From Fibrobacterota bacterium (lineage in GTDB: Bacteria; Fibrobacterota; OXYB2-FULL-49-7; JAEUSG01): a stretch of DNA of 55,259 nt. Numbering within the stretch: the stretch's first letter is position 1; every line of letters begins with the position of its first letter. Positions 36,914 through 53,564 of the stretch are shown one piece after another. The translations under genes and the position numbers were made by a program. The notes under the pieces are model-generated. The model was not told the DNA's origin and ran no database searches. It saw only the letters and a program-made list of their open reading frames with translations. The stretch covers positions 1-55,259 of the forward strand of contig JAEUSG010000116.1 of NCBI GenBank assembly GCA_016788315.1, written 5' to 3'.

Positions 36914-39900
36914 ATGCGGATTCTGTCAGCGTTGCTGGTTTTGATTTTTTCTGCAACAGCTTTACACGCTGCACTTAAAATTCCACTCACCGTGAAAGAT
37001 GGCGCTTCCGCCGGAAATATTACCCAGTATCCGGTTAAGGTTGGTGTCCCCCTGCCGATGGGAACCTATGATAACACCGCGAACTTCCGGGTCGTGGATG
37101 CTTCGGGCAACACGGTTCCAGCCCAGTTTGATGTTCTTGCCCGCTGGTGGCCGCGCAACACATCCATCCGTTTTGTTCTCGTTCAGTTTCTTACAGATGT
37201 CAACAGCGGTTCACGCAGCCGCTACTTTTTACAGGATGATGGTTCCGGCAACGCTGCAACAGGTGTACAGATAAGTGAAGATGCCGCCCGCTACTCGGTC
37301 AATGCTGGTAAAGTCCAGTTTGAAGTAAAAAAGAACAGCTTCAATATTATTGACCGGCTATGGTATGATGTCAACAACAACGGAACTTTCGAAACTGCTG
37401 AAGAGATGCTCAAATCGGGCCAGGGAAATGGTGCGGCACTTACTGATACATTAGGGAATGTGACCTGTGATACAGCTAAAACCGGTCTCAAGTTCACAAT
37501 GGAGGAATCGGGGCCGGTTCGCATGGTTCTCAAAGTGGAAAGTCCGACCGATACAGCACAGAACGGCTGGGGTTTCATTGTGCGTATACAGGCCTATTAC
37601 AATCAGCCGTTTGTGGTACTCGATTATTATCTGAAGAATTCAGCTTATGGTGCTACCGGTCACCATCTCAGTTACTCAAAATTTGCACTGGTGAACAATC
37701 TCTCCTCCCTGGGGAGTGCGACGGTTCGTGCGGGCGGCGCTCTCGCGGATAATGCCGGTGCCTACGAAGCTGCTCTGGGCAGTTCCGCAGTTACAGATGT
37801 GGCCACAGCATGGTCAACCTATACAGTCAACGGAAGCGTCAAGAGCGGTATTGCTGCAGGATATGTTGACCTTTCTGACAATGTTAAGGGAATGATGGCT
37901 GTTGTCCGGAAATTCTCTTATCTCTGGCCCACGGGTCTTGAAGTAACCGCAGACAAAAAGATTAATGTCAATCTCTGGCCGCAGGGTTCGCACCGGATGC
38001 TTGATGAAACGCGACGTTCCCATCAGGTGCTCCTCTATTTCCATCCGGGAAGTGCAACACAGGCAGACCTGTTCAAACAGGCGAAAATTTTCCAGCAGTA
38101 TCCGGTACCGGTGCTCCAGCCCACCTGGTACGCGCAGACTCATGCCTTCAGTGACTGGGGCGGGGTCGGGTTTCCTTCAGACACCACCTGGAATGAAGCG
38201 CTCTATAATCCGCCGACATCATATGCAGGTACGGGAAACAGCCTGGCAACGGGCTGGTGGAACTGGGGCGGTTCACCAGGACGGCGCAACAGCTCCGGCG
38301 GCGGCGGCTGGCCCGGATACCTTGATGATTATGTGTCGTGCGGCAGTCCGGCCTATTTTTATCACGCCGATGATGTGGCCCGTCACACAGCAGAAATGAG
38401 GCCCATGTGGATGGATAATTTCCAGTACGGCACCGATAACCGGCTGGTCAAGATAGAATATCCGCCGGCATGCGGTCTACGCGCTCCTAATGCCGGTCTC
38501 GATTCTACAACCTGGACATCATGGGATTATGAACACATCTGGATTTATGAAATCCTTCAGTACTATTTCATGTCAGGAGAACGGTTCTGTCAGGATTATC
38601 TGAAGATGCAGGCTGATTTTACTATGCTATCAAATTGGGATCTCTCCATTGCCGATACTATGAAGCCGCCCTATTACCATGATTTTACCAGAAGCCACGG
38701 ACAATCCATCCGAACTGCAGTGGATGCCTACAAGGCCACAGGCGAAGAGCGGTATCTTAAAATTATCAAGGCGTATGCGCAGTACTTTGTAGATAATGCA
38801 AAATCACCATATGGAATATTCTGTCTGAAACCTTTCATGTCCTCTTTTATTTCGTCAAGCGGATTTGATATTTACTTCCTGCTGCCGGAGAATACCTCTG
38901 AAGAGCGTATCCTTAAAGAGCGGTTTCTGCGGGTGCTTCAGAGCGCAGGTAATGGTGCTGTTTATTGGGGCGGCAACAATACAGCCAGCTGTCCCAAAGC
39001 ATGGGGACAGGCCTATCAATACCGTGCAGACTCGGTCTATGTAAGGCCAACACCATCCGGTATCGAAGGTGAGTTCTACTATGTCTCATATTATATGAAC
39101 CATCTGGGACTCTCCTATTTCCTCTTCGGCGATACAGTTTATCGCAGTCTTATCGGGCGCAGTAATCCGAATGGAGCCGTCCTAAATCCGCCACAGAGTT
39201 TCATGGCGGCACCTGTCGGTTCTGCACCGGCAAACTACTATAGGGGAGCGAGTGCCGCCTGGTATAATCCGGAACAGAAAAAATCGGTGATGCCTCCCCG
39301 CATAACTACGCTCAAAGCTGTCTCAAGCCATGACCGCGTTGTTGCGCTGCAATGGACATCCGTGGGCGGCGATGCGTACAAACTCTGCTGGTCGAACAAG
39401 CCTATTGTCAACAAGCTTGGACGGGTGGCGCCGCTTGACAGCGGGGATATCTATTTACCATATCCCGATACGGTCAAGGCCTTCACAAATATTTATCGGG
39501 CCATACCTCTTGATATTACCGGCAAGCCGAAGACCAGCGGGCAGACAGAGCTGTTTACAACCGCAACATTGCCGGATTCTCTGATTGGGAAAAAGGTTTA
39601 TTTCATTCTGCAGGCAGTGAATATCGCTTCTGATGTCGACCAGTGCCGCGGTGCCATCTCCAATCTTGACAGCATTGTTCTTGATAGTGCAAAGGGAACT
39701 TTCGGTCCGGCGGACTCTACAGTGTTTCCGAGAACGGTACGCAGTGTTTACACCATGAACAGCGGTGAACTCATGGTAGTTCTTAACAATCCGGTTACCG
39801 GCGGCAGTGCGCTTACCTGGGGTGTCGCTCTTGCACACGCTGCAAAGGGTACTCAACTCACAATCAGTTCTGTGGAACTGGATACGAACTGCAAAACCCT

Positions 39901-40780
39901 CCTCCGCATCAGAACCAGCGGTATGGTCGAAGGGCAGTATTATCGTCTGATGCTTGACAGCGCACAGACTCCATGGACCTTTGTTGCCAATTTCAGACCC
40001 AACATATTTTCGACCCGTAAAATCCATTTCGGCAACAACTATCATGGCAACGGCTGGGAAGTGGGTCACAGGTGGGATGGCGACATCGGCTATAACATGG
40101 TTGCCTGGGATGCTGTGAGCTGGTACGATTGGGATCCGGCTACGATTACAGATTCTTCCACACGCGGCTGTATCGGACTGGGATACAGCGCACCTTACGG
40201 CACGGAATGGCTCAAAGTCGTGGTCAGCCGTGAAGTACGGGATTATCTGTTCAGCGCATATGTGCGGGCCGATTCTCCCCGTAAGCTGCAGGTCGAAGAT
40301 ACCATGATGTGGAACAGCCGGCCTTCGGCTGGAGGAGTGGTTCGAACGGACAGTATTCCCCTTTTGGTGAAAGATGGCTGTGTTGACATGGTCTGGCAGC
40401 ATCTGACCAATATTCAGGTAATTCCGGTGTTCAAGTACTTCAAGAGCGTCAACTTCAAACCGATTGCTGTGGAAAAGAGTTCTAATGAAGGGGCAGATAA
40501 TTCATTTATTGTAAACTACCCCAATCCCTTTAATCCGGAAACACGGATAAGTTTTGCACTAGGCCGCGGGATCTCGCTAGCTCAGGCGCACCTCGTTATT
40601 TATGATGTGTCCGGCCGGATAGTTCAGCAGTTCACACCTGCTGTCCGCAGTGGACAGGTATGCACAGTGCTCTGGAATGGCCATTCTCAGAATGGAAAAT
40701 CCGTTGCCAACGGCATTTACTATGCACGCCTGAATGCAGGTTCCAAAGTGCTGATTCGGAAACTGGTTTTTATGAAATAG
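36914..40780 (+). CDS. very large secreted protein, PcRGLX(PL26)-like N-terminal domain, T9SS sorting domain (paralog B, high-GC)
   Basis: Signal peptide MRILSALLVLIFSATALHA. The N-domain LKIPLTVKDG...PVKVGVPLPMG...FRVVDASGNTVPAQFDVLARWWPRNTSIRFVLVQF is colinear with 27436..30483. The C-terminus reads NYPNPFNPETRISF...GIYYARLNAGSKVLIRKLVFMK. GC content is clearly higher than in neighbouring genes. Confidence 0.45.
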   Translation: MRILSALLVLIFSATALHAALKIPLTVKDGASAGNITQYPVKVGVPLPMGTYDNTANFRVVDASGNTVPAQFDVLARWWPRNTSIRFVLVQFLTDVNSGSRSRYFLQDDGSGNAATGVQISEDAARYSVNAGKVQFEVKKNSFNIIDRLWYDVNNNGTFETAEEMLKSGQGNGAALTDTLGNVTCDTAKTGLKFTMEESGPVRMVLKVESPTDTAQNGWGFIVRIQAYYNQPFVVLDYYLKNSAYGATGHHLSYSKFALVNNLSSLGSATVRAGGALADNAGAYEAALGSSAVTDVATAWSTYTVNGSVKSGIAAGYVDLSDNVKGMMAVVRKFSYLWPTGLEVTADKKINVNLWPQGSHRMLDETRRSHQVLLYFHPGSATQADLFKQAKIFQQYPVPVLQPTWYAQTHAFSDWGGVGFPSDTTWNEALYNPPTSYAGTGNSLATGWWNWGGSPGRRNSSGGGGWPGYLDDYVSCGSPAYFYHADDVARHTAEMRPMWMDNFQYGTDNRLVKIEYPPACGLRAPNAGLDSTTWTSWDYEHIWIYEILQYYFMSGERFCQDYLKMQADFTMLSNWDLSIADTMKPPYYHDFTRSHGQSIRTAVDAYKATGEERYLKIIKAYAQYFVDNAKSPYGIFCLKPFMSSFISSSGFDIYFLLPENTSEERILKERFLRVLQSAGNGAVYWGGNNTASCPKAWGQAYQYRADSVYVRPTPSGIEGEFYYVSYYMNHLGLSYFLFGDTVYRSLIGRSNPNGAVLNPPQSFMAAPVGSAPANYYRGASAAWYNPEQKKSVMPPRITTLKAVSSHDRVVALQWTSVGGDAYKLCWSNKPIVNKLGRVAPLDSGDIYLPYPDTVKAFTNIYRAIPLDITGKPKTSGQTELFTTATLPDSLIGKKVYFILQAVNIASDVDQCRGAISNLDSIVLDSAKGTFGPADSTVFPRTVRSVYTMNSGELMVVLNNPVTGGSALTWGVALAHAAKGTQLTISSVELDTNCKTLLRIRTSGMVEGQYYRLMLDSAQTPWTFVANFRPNIFSTRKIHFGNNYHGNGWEVGHRWDGDIGYNMVAWDAVSWYDWDPATITDSSTRGCIGLGYSAPYGTEWLKVVVSREVRDYLFSAYVRADSPRKLQVEDTMMWNSRPSAGGVVRTDSIPLLVKDGCVDMVWQHLTNIQVIPVFKYFKSVNFKPIAVEKSSNEGADNSFIVNYPNPFNPETRISFALGRGISLAQAHLVIYDVSGRIVQQFTPAVRSGQVCTVLWNGHSQNGKSVANGIYYARLNAGSKVLIRKLVFMK

Positions 40781-40890: not shown

Positions 40891-43776
40891 TTATTTTGCA
40901 AGTATCATCCTTGCAGCAACAACTCTGCTTTTTTGAGTTACCTTGCATATGTAAACCCCTGCTGACATAGGAATATTTACGTCATCTCTTCCATTCCATA
41001 TGAACTTATGTAAACCATTACCATAAATGCCATCTGCCAACACTCTAACAACTCTTCCTTCTAGATTGTAAATCGTTACATTAAGTCTGTCAGATACACT
41101 TTTACCGGAAATCATTACAGAAATCGTCGAAGCGGGATTAAATGGATTTGGAGAAACCTGGATGCTATAATCATCAATATTTACATTTTCATAAAACCCC
41201 TCAGATGCTGTTTGTGATGTAGTGAAATCGGGACAATTATCAAGCATGTAATTCATTCGTACTCTGATAATCCTGACATTGATATCATCGGACACATATA
41301 CACAATTGTCTGATGCAGCCGCTGCCATGGGCATGAACATTGGAATGCGTGACCCATCACCTTTACTGTCAGAATTTCCATACTCTCCAAATTCCATTAT
41401 CAGGTTATTTGCATTATCTACAACACGAACTTTTCCTGAAATACCGTTCGGCACAAAGAGACGGCCATAAGCATCGACATCAAAACGGGGGCTGCGGCAG
41501 ATACAGGCATTACCCGGGTCTTCACTAAATGGTGCGATACCTGCCTTCGTGTAAACTGATACTGCATTATTGACAGTAGTAGAAGTAAACCCTCCTGTTA
41601 AACTAGATGATAAATCAAATTTGGCGATTACACCTGTTGCAGCACGGTATATAGCATCCGAGATAAAATCTGAAGGCACATCCATTTCAGAAGTAAAGCA
41701 GCGGCCTCCTGCAGCATAAATATTCCCTTTGCGATCAAACTGTACTCCTGCACTCGTATTTAGTTTGGTAGATAGTACAGTATCCTTAATCAGACTGCCT
41801 GTGGAATCATAAAGTGCATATGTACGACGATCCAGAAATAACATTCTACCATCATTACTTACTGCAAAACCTTTTGTCCCGATACCTCCATATGCTGCGC
41901 CCTGAATGTAGGTGTCATTGCTTATGTTGTCTGCAAGAATATTGGTCCCTTTTGCAACATAGTTGGCTGGTTCATGGAGATGATTCAAAGTGTACCGTGC
42001 AATTTTATAGCCGGTTTGTGTATAAAGAAGACCATTAAAACCTATCTGAACTTCGGCAGCAGTCAGTTTCTGACCAGAAGAAGTGGAACAAATTGACATA
42101 AATGGATTATTCCAGTTTTCTACTTTAAAGAGTCCATGAAAATTATTTGTCACGACGACCTGATCGGTTGCTGCATCAGCATCCATTCGTGTAAGATATC
42201 CGCTCCAGGCGTCTCTATATTGAGTACCGCCTGTATATGCAGAATCCTGAAAACGGCTTATCAAAGTGAAATTAGCACCATCGTCACGGACACCCCAAAT
42301 TCCCTGATTATTTAAGCCATATCCAAGATTACCGGACAACCAAACAACAGGTTTATCAGAAGCCTGGTTTACAACCAAATAACTTTTTGCCCCGGCGGTA
42401 AAGGAAAATGTTGCCATAACTGTTGGCGAATTTCCCCGCCAGTCAGAAATCTTTTTAAGTACAGTTGGCAAATTCAGTCTTCGTGCAACAAGATAAATTT
42501 CACCTGTTTTTCTGTTAACAGCTATGTTATCTGGAGACATCTGCGGAATGGCCTTTATAAAATTTCCGGTTGTATCATATATACCGATACAATTACGGAC
42601 TCGGTCACAAATAAATATATGACCGCTGTCGTCTGTTGTCACCCCGTTAATTGCGGCATCAGGCCCGACTCCAGGAAATCCAGTACGATTAGATGCAAGT
42701 AGTGAATCTTTTGATATTGTAATTATGGATGTAGTTTTACCTGTAGCGAGATCAACTTTATAAACCTGCCCGTCACGCCAGGAACTGAAAGTATCAACAT
42801 AACCTGTTCCCCATCCGTTACTTCCTCCGGTACTAACCCAGCCATAGATACCGCTAATAAGCACAGATTTATGGTCGGGAAACCATGTCATATACAATGG
42901 TCCGCTATAGAGCGGTGCTAACGCTGGTGATTTTATAAGACTTCCTCTATTGTTGATAACTGAATTCAGAGAGATATCAAGTGCACCGTTGAATACACGA
43001 CTGAATAATCCAACATTATTTACACGACTGTACTTGAAAGCCAATACCCGTCCATCAATTACTTCTGGGAGCATGAAACCAGAGAATCTGTTTAGAGTCA
43101 AAGCACCGGCACGATAGGCAAGATCGGCTAAAGTAGAAGTGCGATAGCGATAACCACCATCATTCAGAAACATTATCTCATAAGGTACCAATGCAGCACG
43201 ATCCATGCCGGATGGAAAAGGCATTATAGTCTTTTTGTAAGCACCACTTGCGCCATCGTAAGCTCGCATTGAGATGACACTACCTACTGTACCTGTTCCA
43301 AGTACATAAAGAGTGCCGTTTGAATCAACAGAGAGACCAAAAAAATTCTCTGACTCATTAGCAGAAGCACCAAACCAGTAATTGCTGCTTTTTTGAATAC
43401 CTCGCTCCATTAGTTTGTCAGCCATTCCTCCATAAAGTGGATGCATATCAGCTCGTACACGGGCACCCAGACCGGCTATTCCAATTACATTAATACCATC
43501 ATCATTCAGACCATCCCATTCAACGCTTTGTTGAAGCGAATTTTGCGCAAACGGAGCAGGTGCATTTGCTCCAAGCCTTCCCGCACAAAGATGTCTGACA
43601 ACTTTTCTATTAATTGTATCAACAATAGAGACCTCTACATCGGTATATTCCGATAAAGTAAAATCGACATATTTTTTTCCATTATCAGACCTGAAACCAG
43701 GCCCAGATACAAAATTCGGAATGGCACATGTGATAGCAGAGATGAACAAAACTAAACTTTTGAGAAGGGTACACAT
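40891..43776 (-). CDS. secreted NHL-repeat beta-propeller protein with N-terminal Ig-like module and T9SS sorting domain (paralog B)
   Basis: Credible start at the internal ATG (MCTLLKSLVLFISAITCA). Colinear with 33432..36335 (EYTDVEVSIVDTINRKVVRHLCAGRLG vs EPSDVEVAIIDTVTKSIIRHLAAGRIG; GHIFICDRVRNCIGIYDTTGNFIKAI). The C-terminus reads VSPNPFNPASTISV...GVYICKVTQKSRVVAARMILAK. Confidence 0.65.
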   Translation of the reverse strand: MCTLLKSLVLFISAITCAIPNFVSGPGFRSDNGKKYVDFTLSEYTDVEVSIVDTINRKVVRHLCAGRLGANAPAPFAQNSLQQSVEWDGLNDDGINVIGIAGLGARVRADMHPLYGGMADKLMERGIQKSSNYWFGASANESENFFGLSVDSNGTLYVLGTGTVGSVISMRAYDGASGAYKKTIMPFPSGMDRAALVPYEIMFLNDGGYRYRTSTLADLAYRAGALTLNRFSGFMLPEVIDGRVLAFKYSRVNNVGLFSRVFNGALDISLNSVINNRGSLIKSPALAPLYSGPLYMTWFPDHKSVLISGIYGWVSTGGSNGWGTGYVDTFSSWRDGQVYKVDLATGKTTSIITISKDSLLASNRTGFPGVGPDAAINGVTTDDSGHIFICDRVRNCIGIYDTTGNFIKAIPQMSPDNIAVNRKTGEIYLVARRLNLPTVLKKISDWRGNSPTVMATFSFTAGAKSYLVVNQASDKPVVWLSGNLGYGLNNQGIWGVRDDGANFTLISRFQDSAYTGGTQYRDAWSGYLTRMDADAATDQVVVTNNFHGLFKVENWNNPFMSICSTSSGQKLTAAEVQIGFNGLLYTQTGYKIARYTLNHLHEPANYVAKGTNILADNISNDTYIQGAAYGGIGTKGFAVSNDGRMLFLDRRTYALYDSTGSLIKDTVLSTKLNTSAGVQFDRKGNIYAAGGRCFTSEMDVPSDFISDAIYRAATGVIAKFDLSSSLTGGFTSTTVNNAVSVYTKAGIAPFSEDPGNACICRSPRFDVDAYGRLFVPNGISGKVRVVDNANNLIMEFGEYGNSDSKGDGSRIPMFMPMAAAASDNCVYVSDDINVRIIRVRMNYMLDNCPDFTTSQTASEGFYENVNIDDYSIQVSPNPFNPASTISVMISGKSVSDRLNVTIYNLEGRVVRVLADGIYGNGLHKFIWNGRDDVNIPMSAGVYICKVTQKSRVVAARMILAK

Positions 43777-43888
43777 AAACGGCTCCTTTTTTTTGTAAAC
43801 ACTCTTGTAACAACAGGTGACCAATAGATATCTCTAAGCAAAAATAAAGGCAGGCAATATTAACCAAATCTCTGGAAAACCACAGTAA

Positions 43889-43935
43889 CTGTCTGGTAGA
43901 ATTGCATATTTTTGTGTCGTTTTACTACCATACAG
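43889..43935. promoter_or_regulatory. imperfect inverted repeat CTGTCTGGTAG / CTACCATACAG (10 of 11) in a divergent promoter
   Basis: Arms at 43889-43899 and 43925-43935, 25 bp apart. The element ends 46 nt upstream of ATG 43982 of the membrane AraC gene. Confidence 0.2.
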
Positions 43936-43981
43936 TGTACAGAAACTTGAAAAATGAGATAATTAACTATATTTGGTGGAT

Positions 43982-45244
43982 ATGCACAATTATATGCGCC
44001 CTGTTTTGGGATACTTACTATTCTTTTCGGTTTTGTCTATTTTTGCAACAACATCACCAGAAAAGCCGCAACCTCTGGCTGTAAATGCAGTTTCAGTACC
44101 TGTCACAATAAATGGTTTTTTAAATGAATGGGGTGACTTTAAAAGGACCTATGAACGGGTGTACCTGGAGGATCCCTATATCACCAGAGCAGCATCGGAC
44201 CGAAATAAGGTGTGGTGTCGGCTTTTATGGGATCGTCACTACCTTTACATAGCATTCAAGGTTGAGGATTCACGACTTTTGGCCCGTACTCTGAATAATG
44301 ACGACTACATATTGAACGACGATGGAATTGAACTGTTCATCGACAAAAAAGATGATACATCTGCGACATGGAGTCCTGATGTCTATCACATCTTACTCGG
44401 TCTGAATAATAATCTGATGCAAAAACAGGGAATCGTTCCAGTTCCAGGTAATGGTAAGATCCAGCAAACAGTTATACATAATATTGACATAAAAAGTTTT
44501 GTCCGTGTGTCTGGCACTGTAAACAATAACAACGATATCGATTCAGGTTATCAGGCCGAAATAGCCATTGCATGGAAGAGTCTTGGTGTCAATTCTTGTA
44601 ACGGTTTTTCATTCCGTTTTAATTTTGCAATTAATGAATGGGACTCTTTATACATAGATACAACCGGTTCAGACAAGTTCACTGTTTATTACCACTATGC
44701 AGGCAATTGGGTGGAACCTCATGCCAACGTTCCTGCAAACTGGCAATCATTCATTCTTGAAGGAGGAGCTACTGTTTCGAAAGATGACAGTGGTTCCTCG
44801 AAAGCAAGTTTCGGCAAACTGCTTATTCCAGCTCTTTTCCTTTTGGCTCTGATTATTATATCCTCCATTTACTTTTTTGTATTACGTCGCCGTTCACAGG
44901 CCATAAGCAGTAAGCTGCGTAGTGAAATCGAATTTAAACTTAAGTCATATATCGACGAAAACTTCCGGAAAAAAGTATTACTTGAGGATTTTTGCAATCA
45001 GTATAATCTAGGTTTGCGCCAAGTCCAGCGCTGGCTGAAAAATGACCTCAACACAACATTTAATGAAATGTTGACAAAAAAGAAAATGAGCGAAGCCAAA
45101 CAGCAGCTTGAAATGACAGACAAGACCGTCTCAGAGATCTGTTTCGACCTCGGCTATAACGATACAAGCTACTTTACAAAGGTCTTCAGAGGCGCTTACG
45201 GTATAGCACCAACCGACATACGAAAAGCTGCAAGAAAGGGATAG
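43982..45244 (+). CDS. membrane-tethered AraC-family regulator: CBM9/DOMON-like ectodomain - single TM - cytoplasmic AraC HTH
   Basis: ORF begins at TTG 43973; ATG 43982 is preferred. N-terminal signal or anchor VLGYLLFFSVLSIFA. Ectodomain INGFLNEWGDF...VWCRLLWDRHYLYIAFKVEDS...DDGIELFIDKKDD is CBM9-like. TM helix LLIPALFLLALIIISSIYFFVL is followed by RRRSQ. C-terminal HTH reads VSEICFDLGYNDTSYFTKVFRGAYGIAPTDIRK. Confidence 0.7.
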   Translation: MHNYMRPVLGYLLFFSVLSIFATTSPEKPQPLAVNAVSVPVTINGFLNEWGDFKRTYERVYLEDPYITRAASDRNKVWCRLLWDRHYLYIAFKVEDSRLLARTLNNDDYILNDDGIELFIDKKDDTSATWSPDVYHILLGLNNNLMQKQGIVPVPGNGKIQQTVIHNIDIKSFVRVSGTVNNNNDIDSGYQAEIAIAWKSLGVNSCNGFSFRFNFAINEWDSLYIDTTGSDKFTVYYHYAGNWVEPHANVPANWQSFILEGGATVSKDDSGSSKASFGKLLIPALFLLALIIISSIYFFVLRRRSQAISSKLRSEIEFKLKSYIDENFRKKVLLEDFCNQYNLGLRQVQRWLKNDLNTTFNEMLTKKKMSEAKQQLEMTDKTVSEICFDLGYNDTSYFTKVFRGAYGIAPTDIRKAARKG

Positions 45245-45253: not shown

Positions 45254-45271
45254 ATAGCTGGTAGCAGCTAT
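45254..45271. terminator. small hairpin ATAGCTG-GTAG-CAGCTAT between convergent genes
   Basis: 7-bp perfect stem with a 4-nt loop, read directly. It overlaps the stop codon of the minus-strand ORF. Confidence 0.3.
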
Positions 45272-46050
45272 CTAACCATCGTAAGCTTCTTTACAATACT
45301 CTTTCCTGAGTATTCTGCCTTTACGAAATATACTCCTGTTGATGATGTTTTCCCTTTTGTATCCTTTCCACTCCAGACAATGCCTTTTGCAGCTGCGCCA
45401 ACAGTTGTATTTTCTGTGTACACCACTCTACCATCCGATGATATTACCGAAAGTCTGATTGCTTTTTGCGGATCTGTACCATAGGCAGCTCCAGTAAATT
45501 TGATAGTTACCATCGGATTGAATGGATTCGGCGCTGCTGTCAACGAAGAGCCGTTTATATATTCGCCGTCTAATACAGGATCTTCTGTGGACTCAGTATA
45601 TGTCCAGTCGATAATCGGATTTTTCCTGTAGTTACTCTTATTGTTAAGATAGAATAGATAGGGCTGAAAGACCGTCATATCATATTTTCCGCCGAAGCCG
45701 TGATCCCATTGTCTGAAAATTCCATTCTTTCCATCCATTGCGAAAGTGTTCATCTTTCTTTCAAACACTGTGTCGCCCGTGAAATAGAACAGTCGCGCAA
45801 GTTCTCCCGGTATTCTGAAATTGCTGGCCGTTGTTGTTGATGGTGAGGTAGTGTCGGCATATCCCCAGCCGTGATAAAGAATATTGCATTTAGGACTGAA
45901 AACAGAATCCTTGAAACATGTAACCCTTCTTGTAAAGTAATTGTTCAAGCTGTCATTCCAGAAGTTTTCAGAATACTCAATCCAGATATTTGCTGATGCT
46001 GACTCAATTGGAACGGCTGACAGTATCGTTTGCGGCGATGCATTTATCAT
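45268..46050 (-). CDS. leaderless ORF carrying a T9SS sorting domain (probably a 5'-truncated cargo gene)
   Basis: 260 aa. The C-terminus reads AAPNPFNPMVTIKF...GVYFVKAEYSGKSIVKKLTMVR. The N-terminus MINASPQTILSAVPIES is not a signal peptide. The first 110 nt overlap the opposite-strand ORF 45941..48262. Confidence 0.45.
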   Translation of the reverse strand: MINASPQTILSAVPIESASANIWIEYSENFWNDSLNNYFTRRVTCFKDSVFSPKCNILYHGWGYADTTSPSTTTASNFRIPGELARLFYFTGDTVFERKMNTFAMDGKNGIFRQWDHGFGGKYDMTVFQPYLFYLNNKSNYRKNPIIDWTYTESTEDPVLDGEYINGSSLTAAPNPFNPMVTIKFTGAAYGTDPQKAIRLSVISSDGRVVYTENTTVGAAAKGIVWSGKDTKGKTSSTGVYFVKAEYSGKSIVKKLTMVR

Positions 46051-48438: not shown

Positions 48439-51351
48439 GTGATTTTGAAGTTGAAATACTTAGCACTTTTAGCATTTTACCTTTTGACAGATTGTTCCAA
48501 TCCGGTCTCGAAAGAAAAAGAAGCGATTCCACCAGCCCCACCAGAAACTCCGAACCAATTTTCGGGACATACCGGTATAAAGGAAAACACACTCACCTGG
48601 TCTAACAGCACTGATTCTCTTTCTTACAATCTTTACTGGTCCACTGAGGATTCTGTCTCAATAGAAACTGCGAAAAAAGTGAGTGGTGTGACCTCCCCTT
48701 TCAAACACACTGCTTTGGATTTTCGTTCCACATACGCTTATGTACTCACTGCTGTTAATCAAATTGGCGAATCACAGCCAACAACCATAGTTAGATTGAA
48801 ACCTCTCATTCCCCCGCCTGTCAATCCAAAAACCACTCCCGGGAAATCGCAAATCACACTGACCTGGAATCCAGTTGCAGGTGCCTCAGGGTACCGGGTT
48901 TACTGGTCTAACATACCGGGAGTCACTCCAACAACGGGTTCTCGAATTTCGAGTACTACATCTGCATTGGTCCATACCTCTCTGGACTATCGACTGACCT
49001 ACTATTACATCATCACCACATTAGACAGCACACGCGAATCAGCCCCCTCCACAGAAATTATTGGACAGACCGTCCTACCTCAGCCTCAAGGGTTCACCGC
49101 TACCCCTGGTGTGGGTCAAATTACCCTCCAATGCGACACATTGCCCGGTGCAACACAGTACAACATCTACTGGTCAAATACACAAGGCGTTACCCCGATA
49201 ACCGGAAAGAAAATGACTTCATCCCTGCCAAACATCATCCATTCATCACTCAACTACTTACTCACCTACTACTATATCATCACTGCAGCTGATAGTGGTC
49301 GGGAGTCCGAGCCTCTCCCTGAAATTAGCCTCCACCCAGATTTGCCGGCCCCACGATTGGGAGGGAGTATTTCGGAACCGGGCAAAATTACCTTGCGATG
49401 GGATTCTATTCCAGGAGCAACGGCCTATAACATCTATTGGTCCACCAGCAAAGGTGTTACGCAGGCTACAGGTAATAAACTCACCAGCAAAATACCCACT
49501 CTCACCCATACCGGACTCGATTACAGAGCAACTTATTATTACATTGTCACATTCAGTACAGATAACCGTGAATCTCCACCGTCGTCTGAAACCGTTGCAC
49601 GGACCGCGCTTCCAACTCCGACAGGTGTCAAAGCCTCGTCAGGACTTGGTACCATTACTTTACAATGCGACTCACTTCCGGGCATTACCCAATACAACAT
49701 TTATTGGTCGAATTCACCTGGCGTAACGAAGGCAAATGGTAAAGTAATAAGCAGCACAGAACCCAAAATTACCCTGAGTAAACTCAACTACACCCTGACT
49801 TATTATTACATCATCACAACCCTGGAAGGGGGCCGGGAGTCCGTCCCCTGTGCAGAGATTAATGCTCGCCCTGAAATGCCTTCTCCTACAGGGGGAAAAG
49901 CCCTTCCAGGAACGGGAACAAACACCCTGCAGTGGGACGCTGTCAGCGGAGTCACGCACTATAACATCTACTGGTCTACAACCCCCGGCGTAACTAAGCA
50001 AACAGGCACCAAGCTGACATGCACAGGAACTCAATTCATACACACTGGGCTGAATTATCAACTAACCTATTATTACATCATTACAGCAGCAGACATTAAT
50101 CGTGAATCCGCTCCCAGTAATGAATTCCATTCAACACCAACCATCAGCAGTCCGGAAAACATAAGGCTCTCAGCAGTTGATAATCGGGCAATTTTGACTT
50201 GGAAAAACGTACCAGGTGCTGAGCAATACGACATATACCGGACCGCAGCCAATTCCACACCATTCATACGAATTCAAAATGTCAACAGCCCATGTACATT
50301 GACAAGTCTGGATACTGGACTTTATTCCTTTCAGGTTAGAGCACTCCGTTCGTTTGATGCATCTGTCCCAGACACCACACTGAGCTGCCGTATAAATGGC
50401 TTCATATTTGAACTGGAGGGAGACCACTATGTGGTTAAAGGGCACAATGGAACAGACACCATTCTCTCCATTCCCAATAAATATGCAGGAAAACCTGTAA
50501 CAACCATTGGAGAGCAAGCATTCTCTAATAAGATGCAATATAAACGTCTTTACATTCCTGAAGGCATCACGACAATAAGGATGATGGCTTTTTACTCCTG
50601 CTCTTTATTAACGGGTCCACTTATTCTCCCCTCAACAGTGAGTGCAATAGGGCCATTAGCCTTTACAGATTGCAACCATCTGGACAGCTCTCTTGTGCTC
50701 CCTGCTTCTCTCACTGAAATTCCTCAAAGCGCCTTTTTACGATGCACCCGTCTGAAAGGCCCGCTCGTGCTGCCGCCGTCGCTGGTAACGATTGGCAGTG
50801 GAGCCTTTGCAAACGATAGCCTTTTGCAGGGAAATATTCAATTTCCATCAACGCTCCGTTCCATAGGAGCCAATGCTTTTGGAAACTGTAAGAGCTTGAC
50901 GGGGTCACTACTTTTCCCGGATAGCCTAAAGAGCATTGGGGGTTGGGCGTTCTATGAGTGCAGCGGACTTACCGGGTCATTGGTTTTACCTCATGGATTA
51001 AGTGTAATTAATCAATACACCTTTACTGGATGCAGAAACATGACCGGAGGATTCGCAGTACCTGAAGGTGTTACCTTTATCGACATATCTGCATTCGTTC
51101 AAATGAACCAGATTACCGGGCCTATTATTTTTCCTGCAAGTTTGAAGCAAATGGGTGCCTGTGTGATTTATAATGAGAAGAGCTTGCAATCAGTGATTTT
51201 CAGAAACCCTGTACCCATTGCAGATATAACGAGTTGCCTCTTCAGTTCGTGTCCTTCAATGAAAACCATAAAAGTTCCGGCCTCCGCCTTGGATGCATAT
51301 AAAACCGCACCGATCTGGAAAAATTGGGCCCACCTCATGATTGCTGAATAA
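48439..51351 (+). CDS. lipoprotein with seven FN3-like repeats fused to BspA-type leucine-rich repeats
   Basis: The ORF starts at GTG 48439, but AAAGGAG abuts it, so TTG 48445 or 48451 is the more likely start. Lipobox-like LLTDC. Seven repeats carry ...Y.(I/V)YWS...GVT...TYYYII(T)...RES.P. The C-terminal half is LRR_5-like (AF..C..L.G.L.LP.S...IG..AF). Confidence 0.7.
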   Translation: MILKLKYLALLAFYLLTDCSNPVSKEKEAIPPAPPETPNQFSGHTGIKENTLTWSNSTDSLSYNLYWSTEDSVSIETAKKVSGVTSPFKHTALDFRSTYAYVLTAVNQIGESQPTTIVRLKPLIPPPVNPKTTPGKSQITLTWNPVAGASGYRVYWSNIPGVTPTTGSRISSTTSALVHTSLDYRLTYYYIITTLDSTRESAPSTEIIGQTVLPQPQGFTATPGVGQITLQCDTLPGATQYNIYWSNTQGVTPITGKKMTSSLPNIIHSSLNYLLTYYYIITAADSGRESEPLPEISLHPDLPAPRLGGSISEPGKITLRWDSIPGATAYNIYWSTSKGVTQATGNKLTSKIPTLTHTGLDYRATYYYIVTFSTDNRESPPSSETVARTALPTPTGVKASSGLGTITLQCDSLPGITQYNIYWSNSPGVTKANGKVISSTEPKITLSKLNYTLTYYYIITTLEGGRESVPCAEINARPEMPSPTGGKALPGTGTNTLQWDAVSGVTHYNIYWSTTPGVTKQTGTKLTCTGTQFIHTGLNYQLTYYYIITAADINRESAPSNEFHSTPTISSPENIRLSAVDNRAILTWKNVPGAEQYDIYRTAANSTPFIRIQNVNSPCTLTSLDTGLYSFQVRALRSFDASVPDTTLSCRINGFIFELEGDHYVVKGHNGTDTILSIPNKYAGKPVTTIGEQAFSNKMQYKRLYIPEGITTIRMMAFYSCSLLTGPLILPSTVSAIGPLAFTDCNHLDSSLVLPASLTEIPQSAFLRCTRLKGPLVLPPSLVTIGSGAFANDSLLQGNIQFPSTLRSIGANAFGNCKSLTGSLLFPDSLKSIGGWAFYECSGLTGSLVLPHGLSVINQYTFTGCRNMTGGFAVPEGVTFIDISAFVQMNQITGPIIFPASLKQMGACVIYNEKSLQSVIFRNPVPIADITSCLFSSCPSMKTIKVPASALDAYKTAPIWKNWAHLMIAE
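48556..50358 (+). repeat. in-frame tandem array, 7 units of exactly 89 codons (267 bp)
   Basis: The conserved Tyr of the (I/V/L)YW(S) motif falls at residues 66, 155, 244, 333, 422, 511 and 600 (IYR in the last unit), a constant 89-aa step. Units 3+4 resemble units 5+6 more than they resemble each other (TLQCD..LPG.TQYNIYWSN / YNIYWST..GVT..TG.KLT...HTGL.Y). Confidence 0.8.
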
Positions 51352-51392: not shown

Positions 51393-52310
51393 ATGGAATC
51401 TCTTAAAGAATTTTTAAATCAACACCAATGGTCCGATACAACCGTTGAAACAGAAGAGGGCGATATTTCCGCCGTCTTTTTCGATTGGAAGAAACTGCCA
51501 GCTGAAGACAAGGCTGACCTCTTTGAATATTTCACCAACGAAGATACTCAGAAAAAAATTGAAAAGGGCGAATGGCTTCCAATTGCTGTGCTTGACATGT
51601 ATTATGGCATGGACAGCTTTGCAGAGATGAATAACAAAGGTATTCTTGTAGTTGTCCAAAAGGACAGCGAATACAAACCTGGTACGGTTCTATGGTTTTG
51701 CCAAGATAACGATGAGCCCGTTCAGGAGTTAGCGGAATCGTTAGATGCCTTAAAAGTAAAGAACTTAAAAGAAGAAAAAGAAGAAAAGGTTACAGCCAAT
51801 GATAGTCCCGACTCTCATTTGGAACCGCCCTACAAGGAACTCTGGGACAGTTCTATTGAAAAAAGCATAAAAAAAGATCTCGATGGTGCTATCGCTGACC
51901 TCAAGATTATTATGAAGGAACTTCCAGGAAACATTGCAGTTCTCAAAGCTCTCGCACAAGTCAGCGAAATGAAAAGCGAGTTTGATACCGCTTTGGAATA
52001 TGTGAATAAAGCGCTGAGCTTTAAACCCAATGACTTCTCTTTACTAAAAACAAAAGGGGAGATTTTAATCAGCTTAAAACATTATGATGGGGCTATAGAA
52101 CTTTCACAAGCGATGGAAAAAATAGCGCGTGACGACGACGACGATTCAGACCTCGGAAAAGCGTTAGCGCTTCGTGGTATTGCACTTGTGAAAACTGGGA
52201 AAACAAAGGAAGCGAAGCCATTAATCGAGGAGGCTGAAGAAAAAGGCTCCTTTCTTTCCATGACTTTTTCTGATTACGACTGGGCAAAAGAGGAAGTTGA
52301 AAAAGTTTAA
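51393..52310 (+). CDS. cytoplasmic protein, N-terminal SUKH(SMI1/KNR4)-like region (weak) plus C-terminal TPR repeats
   Basis: 305 aa with no signal peptide and an acidic linker (KEEKEEK). TPR-like ALKALAQVSEMKSEFDTALEYVNKALSFKPNDFSLLKTKGEILISLKHYDGAIEL. The N-terminal assignment is speculative. Confidence 0.4.
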   Translation: MESLKEFLNQHQWSDTTVETEEGDISAVFFDWKKLPAEDKADLFEYFTNEDTQKKIEKGEWLPIAVLDMYYGMDSFAEMNNKGILVVVQKDSEYKPGTVLWFCQDNDEPVQELAESLDALKVKNLKEEKEEKVTANDSPDSHLEPPYKELWDSSIEKSIKKDLDGAIADLKIIMKELPGNIAVLKALAQVSEMKSEFDTALEYVNKALSFKPNDFSLLKTKGEILISLKHYDGAIELSQAMEKIARDDDDDSDLGKALALRGIALVKTGKTKEAKPLIEEAEEKGSFLSMTFSDYDWAKEEVEKV

Positions 52311-53564
52311 ATGAGTAAATCGACAGAAGCTGCAATTAATTTTTTAATGAAGGGTGAATGGGATCTTTGCCTGGCTGAGATTTCCAATCAACGGTCGGGA
52401 GAAGGAGATTGTTGGGAGTATTGGTGGATAGAAGCACGCATTCTTCGTTTACGCGATAACAATCCAGTCACCGCTTTTGAGAAAATCGATTACAGTCTGA
52501 GTGTTTTTGGTTACAATTTTTATTTACTTGATTCGGGACTCTCCTATTTGAACCTTTCTGGTAAGTACGCGGAAGTGGTGGTATTCTGGAGAAAATATCG
52601 GGAACATTGGTTGTGCAACCAAACAAACCCGACCCAGATTGCAGTGCATCTTTTACACGCCTACTCCCTGCTTAAGCGTCCCTTTGATGGACTTGAAGAA
52701 ATAAAAAGCATGGGGCTTCTTGTTAGTGTAGCAAATGATTGGTCAATCTCAGCTACGAATGATGCTTATTATTTTAATGTCAGCTGTCTTTATGCACAGA
52801 TTGGCGATGTACGGCAGATGCTTGAATATGCGCAGGCTGCACTGGCAATAAAAGATAAGATGGTTCAGTATCTTACAGATGAAAGCTTCGCATCTATGCG
52901 CACCAAAACCATTTTTGCTGACTTTATTGAATATAACAATAACAAATTTAACACCTATTTATGTCTGCAAAAAAACAATCATCGGGTTGAAGTTTTCACT
53001 CGTGCCAACAGCTTTTATTCACTGATGGTAGTTGAATGTACCGATGGTGTGTATCAGCTTAAGAAGTGGGAACGGACCGAATCAGCTGTGACGGAAGACA
53101 ATCAATTTTCTTCTCATGCAGACCTTTTGATGTATCGTAATGCATTCGTTGAAAATCTTCTATCACAGGGTTATGCTTCCGCTGATTACCCTTATGCCGC
53201 TGAATGGATTACAACGCTTAGGGATGTTTTTATTGGTTGTGCATCTTCCCGTGGCATTTCAGAGAATATGAAACCGGTCTTTACGCTTGAATGGGATTAT
53301 GTTTATGAAGATTTAAAGCCGGAAGTTCACCCGTTAACAAGAAGCTATTATTTTTACGGTGATTTTGGTGAAGACGACCATATCGGATTTCTACCTATAA
53401 TCCCTACTCTGGATTGGTTTAAGGAAATTATTCTGAAGAGCATCGAGGGCGTAACGCTAATTTTAGAAAATGCCCGGTTGGAATGCGCACACTCTGAACA
53501 TGATTCGGGGGATGAATTTTCTTTTCTTTATCCCAATGATGATCAGAAAGAAATCGTAGCATGA
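52311..53564 (+). CDS. cytoplasmic hypothetical protein, helical-repeat N-half, weak WGR-like segment
   Basis: 417 aa. The ATG directly abuts the upstream TAA. The segment NSFYSLMVVECTDGVYQLKKWERTESAVTEDNQFSSHADLLMYRNAFVENLLSQGY loosely fits the FY...W(G)R...F.S...A...F......GY WGR pattern. Confidence 0.35.
   Translation: MSKSTEAAINFLMKGEWDLCLAEISNQRSGEGDCWEYWWIEARILRLRDNNPVTAFEKIDYSLSVFGYNFYLLDSGLSYLNLSGKYAEVVVFWRKYREHWLCNQTNPTQIAVHLLHAYSLLKRPFDGLEEIKSMGLLVSVANDWSISATNDAYYFNVSCLYAQIGDVRQMLEYAQAALAIKDKMVQYLTDESFASMRTKTIFADFIEYNNNKFNTYLCLQKNNHRVEVFTRANSFYSLMVVECTDGVYQLKKWERTESAVTEDNQFSSHADLLMYRNAFVENLLSQGYASADYPYAAEWITTLRDVFIGCASSRGISENMKPVFTLEWDYVYEDLKPEVHPLTRSYYFYGDFGEDDHIGFLPIIPTLDWFKEIILKSIEGVTLILENARLECAHSEHDSGDEFSFLYPNDDQKEIVA

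Follow-up and report, generated by a model that had tools for sequence, protein, structure and literature searches.

A predicted one-component transmembrane regulator joins a CBM9/DOMON-like domain to an AraC-type DNA-binding domain beside a T9SS cargo gene

The window analyzed here is a 55,259-nt stretch of DNA from a Fibrobacterota bacterium, in which a regulator gene and a gene for a secreted protein are transcribed divergently. The locus raises the question of whether one short polypeptide could bind a ligand outside the cytoplasm and act directly on neighboring genes within it. The reading frame of the regulator spans 43973-45244 on the plus strand and offers two candidate start codons in the ORF list, ATGs at 43982 and 43994, which give 420 and 416 aa, respectively. 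The public gene call (P0001) is 100% identical, starts at 43994 and comprises 416 aa. The gene and its predicted parts are as follows:

43982-45244, plus strand: CBM9-like/TM/AraC regulator gene (ORF list, sequence and Pfam; stop codon at 45242-45244)
43994-44047, plus strand: signal-peptide-like leader, MRPVLGYLLFFSVLSIFA (hydropathy peak; AlphaFold helix 2-18)
44069-44767, plus strand: predicted extracytoplasmic CBM9/DOMON-like beta-sandwich, P0001 residues ~26-258 (Pfam, profile and Foldseek)
44768-44818, plus strand: Ser/Gly/Asp/Lys-rich linker of ~17 residues between ectodomain and membrane, predicted to be disordered (pLDDT)
44819-44884, plus strand: predicted single TM helix, LLIPALFLLALIIISSIYFFVL (Kyte-Doolittle 19-mer peak of 2.63)
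44885-44914, plus strand: basic juxtamembrane stretch RRRSQAISSK, a predicted cytoplasmic stop-transfer signal (K/R count)
44915-45241, plus strand: predicted cytoplasmic AraC/XylS-type DNA-binding domain with two HTH motifs (HTH_18, HTH_AraC, PDB and Foldseek)

Pfam assigns CBM9_1 (PF06452) to residues 73-220 with an E value of 3.6e-12 and a score of 47 bits (cut-off, 23.4), and both HTH_18 (E = 2.2e-18) and HTH_AraC (E = 1e-9) exceed their cut-offs. The regulator has no Pfam match to kinase, receiver, cupin/AraC_binding or Trans_reg_C domains, and a domain search returned no HisKA, HATPase_c or Response_reg at E <= 0.1. The N-terminal cytoplasmic cupin of classical AraC, which serves ligand binding and dimerization, is absent, and an exported CBM9-like domain is present instead. 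Membership of the AraC/XylS family does not need an N-terminal ligand domain, as MarA and SoxS illustrate, and the regulator carries the C-terminal double HTH of ~100 residues (HTH_18 plus HTH_AraC) that marks the family. It also falls within the definition of a transmembrane transcription regulator (TTR), under which a single polypeptide carries a DNA-binding domain and one or more TM segments (PMC10269533). The sequence strongly supports a predicted architecture of a leader, a CBM9/DOMON-like domain of ~235 aa, a linker, one TM helix and a complete AraC double HTH. Pfam and hydropathy bear out the four-part order (leader, CBM9-like domain, TM, AraC) given in the first-pass annotation, along with its statement that kinase, receiver and cupin domains are missing. 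The motifs it quoted are all present: INGFLNEWGDF, VWCRLLWDRHYLYIAFKVEDS, DDGIELFIDKKDD and YQAEIAIAW in the ectodomain, and LLIPALFLLALIIISSIYFFVL followed by RRRSQ farther along the ORF. The regulator gene appeared in none of the RNA runs searched. Its DNA occurs in a bioreactor metagenome. The SerA homologue of the window has a mixed set of best named matches (Fibrobacterota, Propionivibrio and Treponema), each at ~66%.

The regulator is not unique, and its predicted architecture is that of a sizeable family. We searched exhaustively through representatives clustered at 50% identity and examined the best 150, at least 95 of which have the CBM9/TM/AraC architecture. Eighty-nine of the 150 combine a leader, a domain of ~250 aa, a TM segment and a tail of ~120-170 aa, and six further members have longer linkers. 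HTH_18 is found in all 89 of these relatives and CBM9_1 in 85. Those members whose taxon could be assigned belong to Fibrobacterota, Bacteroidota and Acidobacteriota, and the best-scoring taxon-labelled relative among those checked (P0010) comes from a Fibrobacterota MAG. Other searches were less productive: the regulator sequence alone retrieved one true relative, P0002; the 89-sequence alignment yielded 8,000 scored candidates dominated by HTH proteins, with four matches returned; and a profile search of genome contigs (A3 alignment) gave only unrelated AraC or CBM9 fragments. The source databases annotate family members only generically. The family is an uncharacterised variant of an already known kind of protein, the AraC-type transmembrane regulators.

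We assessed membrane topology by hydropathy, a positive-inside count and conservation across the 89 relatives. A Kyte-Doolittle scan finds exactly two hydrophobic segments in the regulator, residues 5-26 and 280-301. The leader has one basic residue, a 14-residue hydrophobic core, Ala at position -1 and no lipobox Cys. The TM helix, which includes a Pro and a Ser-Ser pair, lies within an unbroken helix spanning residues 273-323 of the AlphaFold model, and five K/R residues occur within 15 residues past it, compared with three before it. Between the TM segment and the first helix of the DNA-binding domain lie only ~14 residues, and the alignment to the AraT domain begins at P0001 residue 312. 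On the outer side, the sole segment with a pLDDT below 50 in the alignment-based model is P0001 residues 264-273, in the linker. The same pattern recurs among the 89 relatives, in which the equivalent TM segment sits 116-170 residues ahead of the C terminus, a hydrophobic N-terminal leader is found in 75, and K/R residues average 4.5 after the TM segment versus 2.4 before it, with the C-terminal side more basic in 76. Most of the leaderless relatives resemble truncated or mis-started gene calls. A predicted type I topology, with the sensor domain N-out and the DNA-binding domain C-in, is supported by these sequence features, and the out-to-in orientation proposed earlier holds, as a prediction, in the regulator and its relatives. 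The accompanying description of the sensor as extracellular went too far: T9SS cargo implies a diderm cell, and the domain would therefore face the periplasm.

The DNA-binding domain is closely related to characterized structures. PDB sequence matches include 6swi, 3mkl, Rns and SoxS, the domain also matches MarA and RamA, and the top Foldseek matches are GadX, AraT and Rns. Against 3mkl, Foldseek gave a TM(target) of 0.87-0.89 and an rmsd of 1.4 Å; the seven-helix domain, modeled with a pLDDT of 96-98, superposes on GadX with an rmsd of 1.4 Å. [quoted passage not shown]

For the ectodomain, a single-sequence AlphaFold prediction was uninformative (pLDDT 39.6), and the model was built instead from the alignment of the 89 relatives (pLDDT 89.2). 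Most of the ectodomain exceeds a pLDDT of 90, with lower confidence in region 216-250. Its best PDB match by Foldseek is TmCBM9-2 (1i82; E = 1.9e-11, TM(target) 0.75), with further matches to 7nwn, 4jpq, 7b04_C and 2ivf_C, and the family profile aligns to 1i82 with an E value of 2.5e-20 over chain residues 12-111 and 125-187 of 189. The Pfam gathering score and this kinship to TmCBM9-2 in fold and sequence place the domain in the CBM9_1 family. The HMM and Foldseek searches agree with the CBM9/DOMON-like sensor fold originally suggested, and neither of the two outcomes named at the time as contrary to it, a cytoplasmic N-domain or an unrelated fold, appeared in the Pfam, Foldseek or profile searches.

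The features of a sugar-binding site are only partly kept. The regulator shares the patterns W-D...LY.A..V.D and D..E.FID with TmCBM9-2 (1i82) and CkCBM9.3 (7nwn), which, unlike its sensor, are modules appended to GH10 enzymes (xylanases), and it retains the equivalent of their Glu77, as do 80 of the 89 relatives with the regulator included. The aromatic sugar clamp, Trp71/Trp175 in TmCBM9-2 and Tyr89/Trp191 in CkCBM9.3 (PMC8280721), is replaced in the regulator by Leu107 and Ala244 in alignments to both 1i82 and 7nwn. Nor is it kept in the closest relatives (P0002, P0009-P0013 and P0159); across the family, the two clamp columns are aromatic in 65/89 and 59/89 members, about two-thirds. CkCBM9.1 does not have either clamp aromatic and has no clear ligand (PMC8280721). 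Because the clamp residues align to Leu107 and Ala244, we can only infer glycan binding, and the direct glycan sensing claimed in the first-pass annotation was overstated. In the model, YYHY..W at residues 232-239 could conceivably form a shifted aromatic platform, within the lower-confidence region 216-250. The most conserved ectodomain motif, R..GT.N.N.D.DSGY..E, sits in an insertion of ~25 residues that carries the family's conserved GT.N...D.D.GY and is missing from TmCBM9-2. The fold also matches the haem-binding DOMON subunits NxrC (7b04_C) and ethylbenzene dehydrogenase gamma (2ivf_C). We rejected a haem-binding DOMON domain because ligand residues are not conserved: no Met, His or Lys column that could supply axial haem ligands reaches 90% conservation among the 89 relatives.

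The genes and DNA next to the regulator point to possible targets:

40891-43776, minus strand: candidate target gene, whose 961-aa secreted product ends in a T9SS sorting domain and has weak NHL matches (TIGR04183 and Pfam)
43777-43981, no strand: divergent intergenic region, presumed promoter/operator (gene coordinates)
43888-43936, no strand: imperfect inverted repeat ACTGTCTGGTAG / CTACCATACAGT, candidate operator (arms 43888-43899 and 43925-43936)

The product of the divergent gene scores 31.4 bits for TIGR04183 against a cut-off of 23, which identifies it as T9SS type A cargo, and also matches FlgD_ig/Por_Secre_tail; its NHL match (Pfam E = 0.039) falls below the cut-off. Of its earlier description as a divergent NHL cargo gene, the divergence and the sorting domain stand, and the NHL label is weak. 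A full-length paralogue, 26% identical, lies at 33432-36335. In the intergenic region, matches to sigma-70-like promoters are no more frequent than in shuffled sequence. The imperfect inverted repeat reported there is real (11/12 arm positions complementary, 25-nt spacer) but only marginally unusual: an equally good one arises in 4.4% of shuffled sequences and in 3.3% of native 205-nt segments drawn at random. Across the rest of the window, its half-site shows no enrichment (4 matches versus 2.7 expected). Spaced inverted repeats also lie upstream of several relatives, with no common sequence.

Across 12 family loci, the window included, the divergent neighbor encodes a secreted or outer-membrane protein in eight, and none of the 12 shows a conserved partner gene that is co-transcribed with the regulator. 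One pectate-lyase-like T9SS cargo recurs as the divergent neighbor in three Bacteroidota loci, with 60-62% identity between loci and a match to PDB 9buj at E = 2.5e-19; the regulators there are only 40-45% identical. Other loci contain four GH172 genes together with CBM6/35 proteins, beta-helix proteins or TonB-dependent receptors. The regulator's clade and the Bacteroidota clade have no conserved target in common: the NHL-like neighbor in the window is unrelated to the lyase-like partner and shows no homology to the partners of relatives except in the sorting domain. Glycan-active genes abound in the window (PcRGLX-like, SASA esterase, GH16+CBM96, GH65 and GH94). Because T9SS cargo genes are very dense in it, adjacency to one is weak evidence here, also for the suggestion in the first-pass annotation that the regulator might stand in for HTCS or SusR-type regulators at this T9SS locus. 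The recurrent, mostly divergent secreted or outer-membrane neighbors of the family fit a local regulatory role.

We propose, with about an even chance of being right, that the protein is a one-component, type I transmembrane regulator through which periplasmic ligand binding controls adjacent secreted-protein genes from the membrane. The leader would export the ~235-residue CBM9/DOMON-like beta-sandwich into the periplasm, and the flexible linker of ~17 residues and the single TM helix would hold the protein in the inner membrane, where the TM helix would continue almost directly into helix 1 of the AraC domain at the cytoplasmic face. The periplasmic domain would bind a small ligand or a piece of polymer, the likeliest candidate being a carbohydrate that has come off a polysaccharide or been imported along with one. 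Judged from model geometry, in which the outer linker is disordered and a short, rigid helix forms the inner connection, the likeliest signal would be that the ligand alters the way in which the TM and juxtamembrane helices self-associate. Such oligomerization would place two AraC domains on operator half-sites of nearby promoters, and the protein would not leave the membrane; the targets would be adjacent secreted-protein genes, foremost the divergent T9SS cargo gene at 40891-43776.

One alternative is that the reading frame is fortuitous, a pseudogene or a fusion created by assembly. The sequence does derive from a metagenome assembly, and its close homologues are few (P0002, 50% identical, and the partial P0159, 43%). 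The frame is nevertheless intact over 420 codons, three Pfam domains in it score above threshold, the domain order recurs in 95 or more independent cluster representatives, the model is confident across domain boundaries, and 85% of sampled words recurred with the same contig sequence in an independent run. We rejected an artefact on the grounds of the Pfam domains, the family-wide architecture and the confident model, and regard it as having a negligible chance of being true. A less remote concern is what the ectodomain binds. It could be a diverged DOMON-type module that recognizes a non-glycan ligand, such as a lipid or other envelope component, a metal, a cofactor or a periplasmic protein (for example, T9SS cargo not yet secreted), or it could be a mere anchor, with the protein reporting the state of the envelope or of secretion. 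The non-aromatic clamp positions of the regulator, their variability in its closest clade, the placement of the most conserved motif in an insertion foreign to TmCBM9-2, the kinship to NxrC and ethylbenzene dehydrogenase gamma, and non-CAZyme neighbors (NHL-like, beta-lactamase-fold and Peptidase_S74 proteins) all lean that way. Haem ligation is opposed by the lack of a near-invariant Met, His or Lys column, and glycan recognition is favored by the clamp aromatics that some two-thirds of the family keep at both positions, by the widely retained Glu77 equivalent and by recurrent polysaccharide-lyase-like, GH172, CBM6/35 and TonB-dependent receptor neighbors. On balance, we consider a non-glycan role improbable.

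The same architecture could also signal by regulated proteolysis. A ligand, or mechanical pull on a polymer-bound ectodomain, would expose the linker to a site-1 protease, after which an intramembrane protease would cut the TM helix and free the AraC domain of ~120 residues as a soluble, MarA/SoxS-like monomer. This scheme resembles that of the CBM-bearing RsgI anti-sigma factors, which use extracytoplasmic CBMs, autoproteolysis and RseP cleavage (PMC10328401 and PMC12203970), except that the released part would be the transcription factor itself. The disordered, Ser/Gly-rich outer linker and the Pro and Ser-Ser within the TM helix would suit cleavage; the short span between membrane and DNA-binding domain would make DNA binding at the membrane sterically tight; and AraC domains of this size can act alone, as the matches to SoxS, MarA and RamA indicate. 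Against it, numerous transmembrane regulators already characterized, among them ToxR, CadC, TfoS and ChiS, bind DNA from the membrane (PMC10269533 and PMC11856585), the regulator contains no autoproteolytic (SEAL-like) domain and the 12 loci contain no linked protease gene. No sequence feature specifically predicts cleavage, and we judge this route unlikely.

Regulation from the membrane, the reading we prefer, can be compared with several known systems. ToxR-like proteins (ToxR, TcpP, CadC and VtrA) have an N-terminal OmpR/PhoB winged helix, a C-terminal periplasmic domain and no signal peptide. The regulator reverses this order, with a leader, a predicted type I topology and an AraC-type DNA-binding domain, and no gene for a ToxS/TcpH/VtrC-like partner lies beside it. 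The label 'ToxR-like' given to it earlier is an analogy only, since DNA-binding family and membrane orientation differ and Trans_reg_C is lacking. TfoS of Vibrio cholerae is far larger than the regulator, with a big periplasmic domain unrelated to CBM9 and degenerate kinase-like and receiver-like cytoplasmic modules; its DNA-binding domain is reportedly AraC-type, according to descriptions from 2014. Both proteins are membrane-bound regulators. TfoS reacts to a product of polysaccharide breakdown and activates a promoter directly from the membrane, and at native levels it needs ChiS to recruit its promoter (PMC11856585). In the census of Demey et al. (2023), HTH_18 is the commonest DNA-binding domain of TTRs (16,725/50,302, 33%), TTRs are enriched in Bacteroidota, and the non-DNA-binding domains listed include CBM9_1, which three TTRs carry (PMC10269533). 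Like the TTRs counted there, the regulator unites a DNA-binding domain with one or more TM segments in a single protein; the census tabulates domains, and CBM9-AraC proteins are neither discussed nor tested in it (PMC10269533). Many of its HTH_18 TTRs are hybrid two-component proteins, whereas the regulator has no kinase or receiver.

Two further systems offer parallels in sensing. In HTCS and SusR-type regulators of Bacteroides, a glycan-sensing domain in the periplasm is joined to a membrane anchor and a cytoplasmic HTH, and the targets are adjacent polysaccharide-utilization genes, a layout that the regulator would share if, as we infer, it senses glycans, and HTCS output is likewise AraC-type. 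In contrast to an HTCS of ~1,300 aa, the 416-aa regulator dispenses with HisKA, HATPase and Response_reg, and its sensor is a CBM9/DOMON beta-sandwich rather than the Reg_prop/Y_Y_Y propeller or periplasmic-binding-protein fold of HTCS/SusR sensors. Clostridial RsgI, which reports polysaccharides and switches on secreted enzyme genes (PMC10328401 and PMC6852018), is also a single-pass protein with a CBM-type domain outside the cytoplasm, and the regulator may resemble it in polysaccharide sensing. RsgI differs in having an N-terminal cytoplasmic anti-sigma domain that acts through autoproteolysis, RseP and SigI, where the regulator has a C-terminal transcription factor, and it occurs in monoderm Firmicutes.

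Taken more broadly, CBM9/DOMON-TM-AraC proteins might be widespread one-protein periplasmic glycan sensors, found in Fibrobacterota-like bacteria, Bacteroidota and Acidobacteriota, that directly switch on an adjacent gene for a secreted polysaccharide-degrading enzyme (often T9SS-exported) or a TonB-dependent importer; we put this forward tentatively, as somewhat less probable than its opposite. The gain would be a new variant of sensor domain, not a new principle, because the wide occurrence of membrane-tethered AraC regulators is already established and the regulator itself does not have the canonical sugar clamp. Little is known of how T9SS-secreted enzymes are regulated when they lie outside classical Sus-type loci, above all in lineages that are Fibrobacterota-like or come from bioreactors and are uncultured, and the pairing of regulator and pectate-lyase-like cargo in Bacteroidota provides a concrete candidate regulator and target for the family. 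With a binding module, one helix and a DNA-binding domain in 416 residues, the protein is about the simplest transmembrane signaling device, a modular sensor that would be easy to dissect and attractive as a biosensor part. If the broader proposal is true, the family would add a further type of glycan-sensing regulator alongside HTCS, SusR-like and ECF-sigma/anti-sigma systems, one in which variable clamp residues would tune specificity.

The regulator ORF contains ATG codons at 43982, the start chosen in the first-pass annotation, and at 43994, from which the 416-aa public gene call, P0001, is read. The sequence motifs quoted in that annotation are all found in the protein, and its proposed architecture of a sensor domain, a transmembrane (TM) helix and an AraC domain is borne out by Pfam and by a hydropathy scan, which detects exactly two hydrophobic segments. 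No Pfam family other than CBM9_1, HTH_18 and HTH_AraC exceeds its curated cut-off. The reported absence of two-component modules thus holds, and identity as a hybrid two-component system (HTCS) is ruled out, the regulator having neither kinase nor receiver. Many NCBIfam AraC-family equivalogs match the C-terminal ~100 residues, but only partially and far under their cut-offs, so no named AraC regulator is its orthologue.

Features of the regulator
43973-45244, + strand: regulator ORF (ORF list)
N terminus: short leader, its 14-residue core preceded by a single Arg, with Ala at -1 and no Cys (hydropathy)
Residues 28-256: beta-sandwich (AlphaFold model)
P0001 residues 73-220: CBM9_1 (Pfam, E 3.6e-12, above curated cut-off)
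Residues 264-273: disordered stretch (AlphaFold model)
Residues 273-323: continuous helix running from the TM segment through a basic juxtamembrane turn into helix 1 of the DNA-binding domain (AlphaFold model)
Residues 280-301: strong TM helix of 22 residues, then RRRSQ (hydropathy)
After residue 323: rest of the seven-helix AraC domain (AlphaFold model, pLDDT 96-98)
HTH_18 (Pfam, E 2.2e-18) and HTH_AraC (Pfam, E 1e-9), both above curated cut-offs

A word-indexed search with the regulator returned one true relative only, P0002 (50% identity, N-terminally truncated). Searching 1.84 billion cluster representatives with HMMER yielded 433 proteins at E <= 1e-10; 89 of the best 150 share the regulator's layout, with the TM helix 116-170 residues ahead of the C terminus, and six further members among these 150, confirmed by Pfam, have longer cytoplasmic linkers. 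The family is larger than had been supposed in the first-pass annotation. In an alignment of the 89 (A1), Pfam finds HTH_18 in every sequence, CBM9_1 in 85 and an extra N-terminal Big_7 Ig domain in 5. Their source names are 'helix-turn-helix domain-containing protein', 'AraC-like DNA-binding protein' and, once, 'msmR1', and the labels of their metagenome-assembled genomes (MAGs) read Fibrobacterota, Bacteroidota and Saprospiraceae, with one contig labelled Acidobacteriota UBA4820. Full-text literature searches for CBM9 or DOMON plus AraC returned no description of this arrangement. The CBM9-TM-AraC architecture is thus a real, sizeable and uncharacterised family.

A sub-group close to the window protein (P0009, P0011, P0012, P0013 and others; 507-537 aa) carries an extra ~130-residue N-terminal domain ahead of the CBM9-like domain, and its members would be two-domain ectodomain variants. 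The second-closest relative, P0159 (NCBI; 43% identity, C-terminally truncated within the AraC domain), is binned in a MAG labelled Methanoregulaceae archaeon; because its contig is only 2,535 bp long, a binning error is more likely than an archaeal family member.

A single-sequence AlphaFold model was useless and was replaced by one built on A1 (mean pLDDT 89.2). The top Foldseek match in the PDB is the cellobiose-bound xylanase module TmCBM9-2 (1i82; E 1.9e-11, target TM-score 0.75), followed by CkCBM9.3 (7nwn, 7nwo) and a putative carbohydrate-binding protein of Bacteroides uniformis (4jpq). Two haem subunits of the DOMON type, NxrC (7b04_C) and ethylbenzene dehydrogenase gamma (2ivf_C), come lower in the ranking. 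At the sequence level, a profile built from 14 ectodomains also matches 1i82 (E 2.5e-20), covering nearly the whole module. Both routes lead to 1i82 and support the CBM9/DOMON-like assignment over an unrelated fold. The C-terminal domain superposes at 1.2-1.9 Å on GadX, AraT and other AraC DNA-binding domains.

A hydrophobic N-terminal leader is present in 75 of the 89 relatives, and most of the others seem to be metagenomic gene calls that are truncated or begin at the wrong codon. Among the 15 residues on either side of the TM helix, K/R number 2.4 on average on the N-side versus 4.5 on the C-side, which is the more basic in 76/89. AraC domains function in the cytoplasm only, and CBM9-type modules are exported domains. 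Indirect but consistent, these features place the beta-sandwich on the outer side of the membrane and the HTH in the cytoplasm, with a cleaved or an uncleaved leader alike, in line with the out-to-in topology first proposed and not with a cytoplasmic N-terminal domain. Because neighbouring genes encode type 9 secretion (T9SS) sorting domains, the organism is a diderm, so the sensor, earlier described as extracellular, would face the periplasm and not the medium.

The regulator is divergent from a cargo gene, as the first-pass annotation had it. The product of that gene has 961 aa and a type A sorting domain of the T9SS, but the NHL character given to this cargo comes from weak matches. On its other side it is convergent with the gene for a 260-aa T9SS cargo (45268-46050). 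Such adjacency proves little in a window crowded with genes for T9SS cargo and for glycan-active proteins: a SASA-type esterase, two PcRGLX-like proteins, a GH16+CBM96 protein, Kelch and NHL propellers, and GH65 and GH94 phosphorylases. Eleven further loci, from relatives, were examined together with the window. In 8 of these 12 loci, the window included, the divergent neighbour encodes a secreted or outer-membrane protein (five T9SS cargos, one Peptidase_S74 protein, one 1,062-aa beta-helix protein and one TonB-dependent receptor). Outside these eight, locus L009 has four GH172 genes and CBM6/35 proteins, and the Acidobacteriota locus L016 a TonB-dependent receptor. In none of the 12 is the regulator accompanied by a conserved small gene for a ToxS/TcpH/VtrC-type partner. 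The strongest case comes from three Bacteroidota/Saprospiraceae loci that share the same ~565-aa T9SS cargo as divergent partner, 60-62% identical across loci (locus coordinates):

L008 8216-9928, - strand: ~565-aa T9SS cargo
L011 8225-9895, - strand: ~565-aa T9SS cargo
L018 3592-5289, - strand: ~565-aa T9SS cargo

Its N-terminal domain is pectate-lyase-like (PDB 9buj, 'pectate lyase', E 2.5e-19; also VexL, 6fi2), where precomputed Pfam gives the sorting domain only. The three regulators are mutually only 40-45% identical, and retention of the pair despite such divergence is good evidence for a regulator-target relationship in this clade. No homology was found between this partner and the window's NHL-like neighbour.

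The shared promoter does contain the inverted repeat described earlier:

43888-43899 and 43925-43936: inverted repeat arms, 11/12 complementary

Shuffled sequences give a repeat of equal quality in 4.4% of cases, and random native windows do so in 3.3%. The rest of the window shows no enrichment of the half-site, and no close relative has an intact upstream region. Spaced inverted repeats also lie upstream of several relatives (L011 9897-9961, L013 5355-5415, L014 1331-1397 and L017 7823-7867; arms 12-23 nt, spacers 19-29 nt), with no sequence in common among them or with that of the window. The window's repeat is a candidate operator and nothing more.

Several other features of these loci were recorded. 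Two genes from the L008 regulator, in a Saprospiraceae genome, a 747-aa protein (11783-14026, -) combines CBM9_1 with DUF5916, so the sensor-type module recurs in a second, non-regulatory protein of that locus. The window has a second AraC-family regulator (22243-23133, -; 296 aa), which lacks a TM segment and has an N-terminal domain that matches no Pfam family; it is divergent from a gene encoding GH16, CBM96 and a T9SS sorting domain (23227-24801, +). Of the window's AraC regulators, one is thus soluble and one membrane-tethered, and both are divergent from a T9SS cargo gene. The NHL-like cargo (40891-43776, -) has a full-length paralogue (33432-36335, -; 26% identity, E 3e-81), and with the two PcRGLX-like (rhamnogalacturonan-lyase-like) T9SS cargo genes (27436-30546, -; 36914-40780, +) the region looks like a duplicated cassette of secreted propeller and lyase-like proteins. 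Consecutive genes at 11569-17975 (+) encode a GH65 phosphorylase, a GH94 enzyme of the cellobiose/chitobiose-phosphorylase type and a sodium:solute symporter; they lie upstream of the T9SS cargo region and look like a cytoplasmic module for disaccharide phosphorolysis. With its mechanically listed start (TTG 45941), the ORF for the SASA-esterase/T9SS cargo overlaps, at 45941-46050, the 5' end of the 260-aa cargo gene on the opposite strand. Its real start probably lies further downstream, in which case the two genes would form one more divergent pair. A 970-aa protein (48439-51351, +) has many fibronectin-III-like repeats ('YNIYWS...TYYYIIT' units) and then BspA-type leucine-rich repeats, with no T9SS sorting domain detected. 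At 51393-54751 (+), genes for a TPR protein and for a 417-aa protein without Pfam match precede two tandem genes of the Imm11 immunity family; a polymorphic-toxin/immunity cluster may once have stood here, with these genes as its remnant.

In characterised CBM9s the reducing-end sugar sits between two aromatics (Trp71/Trp175 in TmCBM9-2, Tyr89/Trp191 in CkCBM9.3), and CkCBM9.1, which has neither, has no clear ligand (PMC8280721). Clamp columns set from HMMER alignments to 1i82 and 7nwn fall three residues ahead of the invariant Asp in the DD.IE motif and three ahead of the conserved Pro in the P..W motif. They are aromatic in 65/89 and 59/89 family members, and the Glu77 equivalent is retained in 80/89. 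In the window protein they are Leu107 and Ala244, so that the canonical sugar clamp is missing; they also vary in its closest relatives (P0002, P0009-P0013 and P0159). The most conserved ectodomain motif, R..GT.N.N.D.DSGY..E, lies within a ~25-residue insertion missing from TmCBM9-2. Because an aromatic-rich stretch (YYHY..W, residues 232-239) adjoins the second clamp position in a lower-confidence region of the model, an alternative platform is possible there. The glycan-sensor proposal thus keeps its CBM9-like fold but loses the canonical clamp; carbohydrate binding by this particular protein is what we infer, and the second competing reading, in which the ectodomain would sense a non-glycan signal, seems unlikely. 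A haem-binding DOMON domain is argued against by the absence of any near-invariant Met, His or Lys column among the 89 relatives.

According to sequence and model together, the exported CBM9/DOMON-like domain is joined by a floppy outer linker to a single TM helix, and the AraC domain sits ~14 residues off the membrane on a helix continuous with that TM helix. We propose that a periplasmic ligand, probably carbohydrate-derived, would alter self-association of the TM and juxtamembrane helices and hence operator-site occupancy in neighbouring promoters, with the regulator remaining membrane-bound throughout, like ToxR, CadC, ChiS and TfoS. The main competing explanation, release of the AraC domain by proteolysis, is analogous to CBM-bearing RsgI anti-sigma factors and would suit the disordered outer linker and the very short tether between TM helix and AraC domain, but with no linked protease in the 12 loci and no autoproteolytic domain we consider it improbable.

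On operational grounds the regulator belongs with the transmembrane transcription regulators. In a 2023 census of 50,302 such proteins, HTH_18 was the commonest DNA-binding domain (33%), Bacteroidota were enriched, and CBM9_1 appeared in 3 proteins, without comment (PMC10269533). Membership of the ToxR family is ruled out by the wrong DNA-binding fold and the opposite orientation, which leaves 'ToxR-like' as an analogy. Functionally the regulator resembles polysaccharide sensors of the SusR/HTCS and TfoS types, and it shares with RsgI a CBM as its outside module. The initial observation is confirmed and its interpretation borne out in part: the architecture, the topology and the fold stand, whereas 'ToxR-like', 'extracellular' and 'glycan' are analogy or inference. 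The window protein is an uncharacterised form of an already known regulator class, within a sizeable family.
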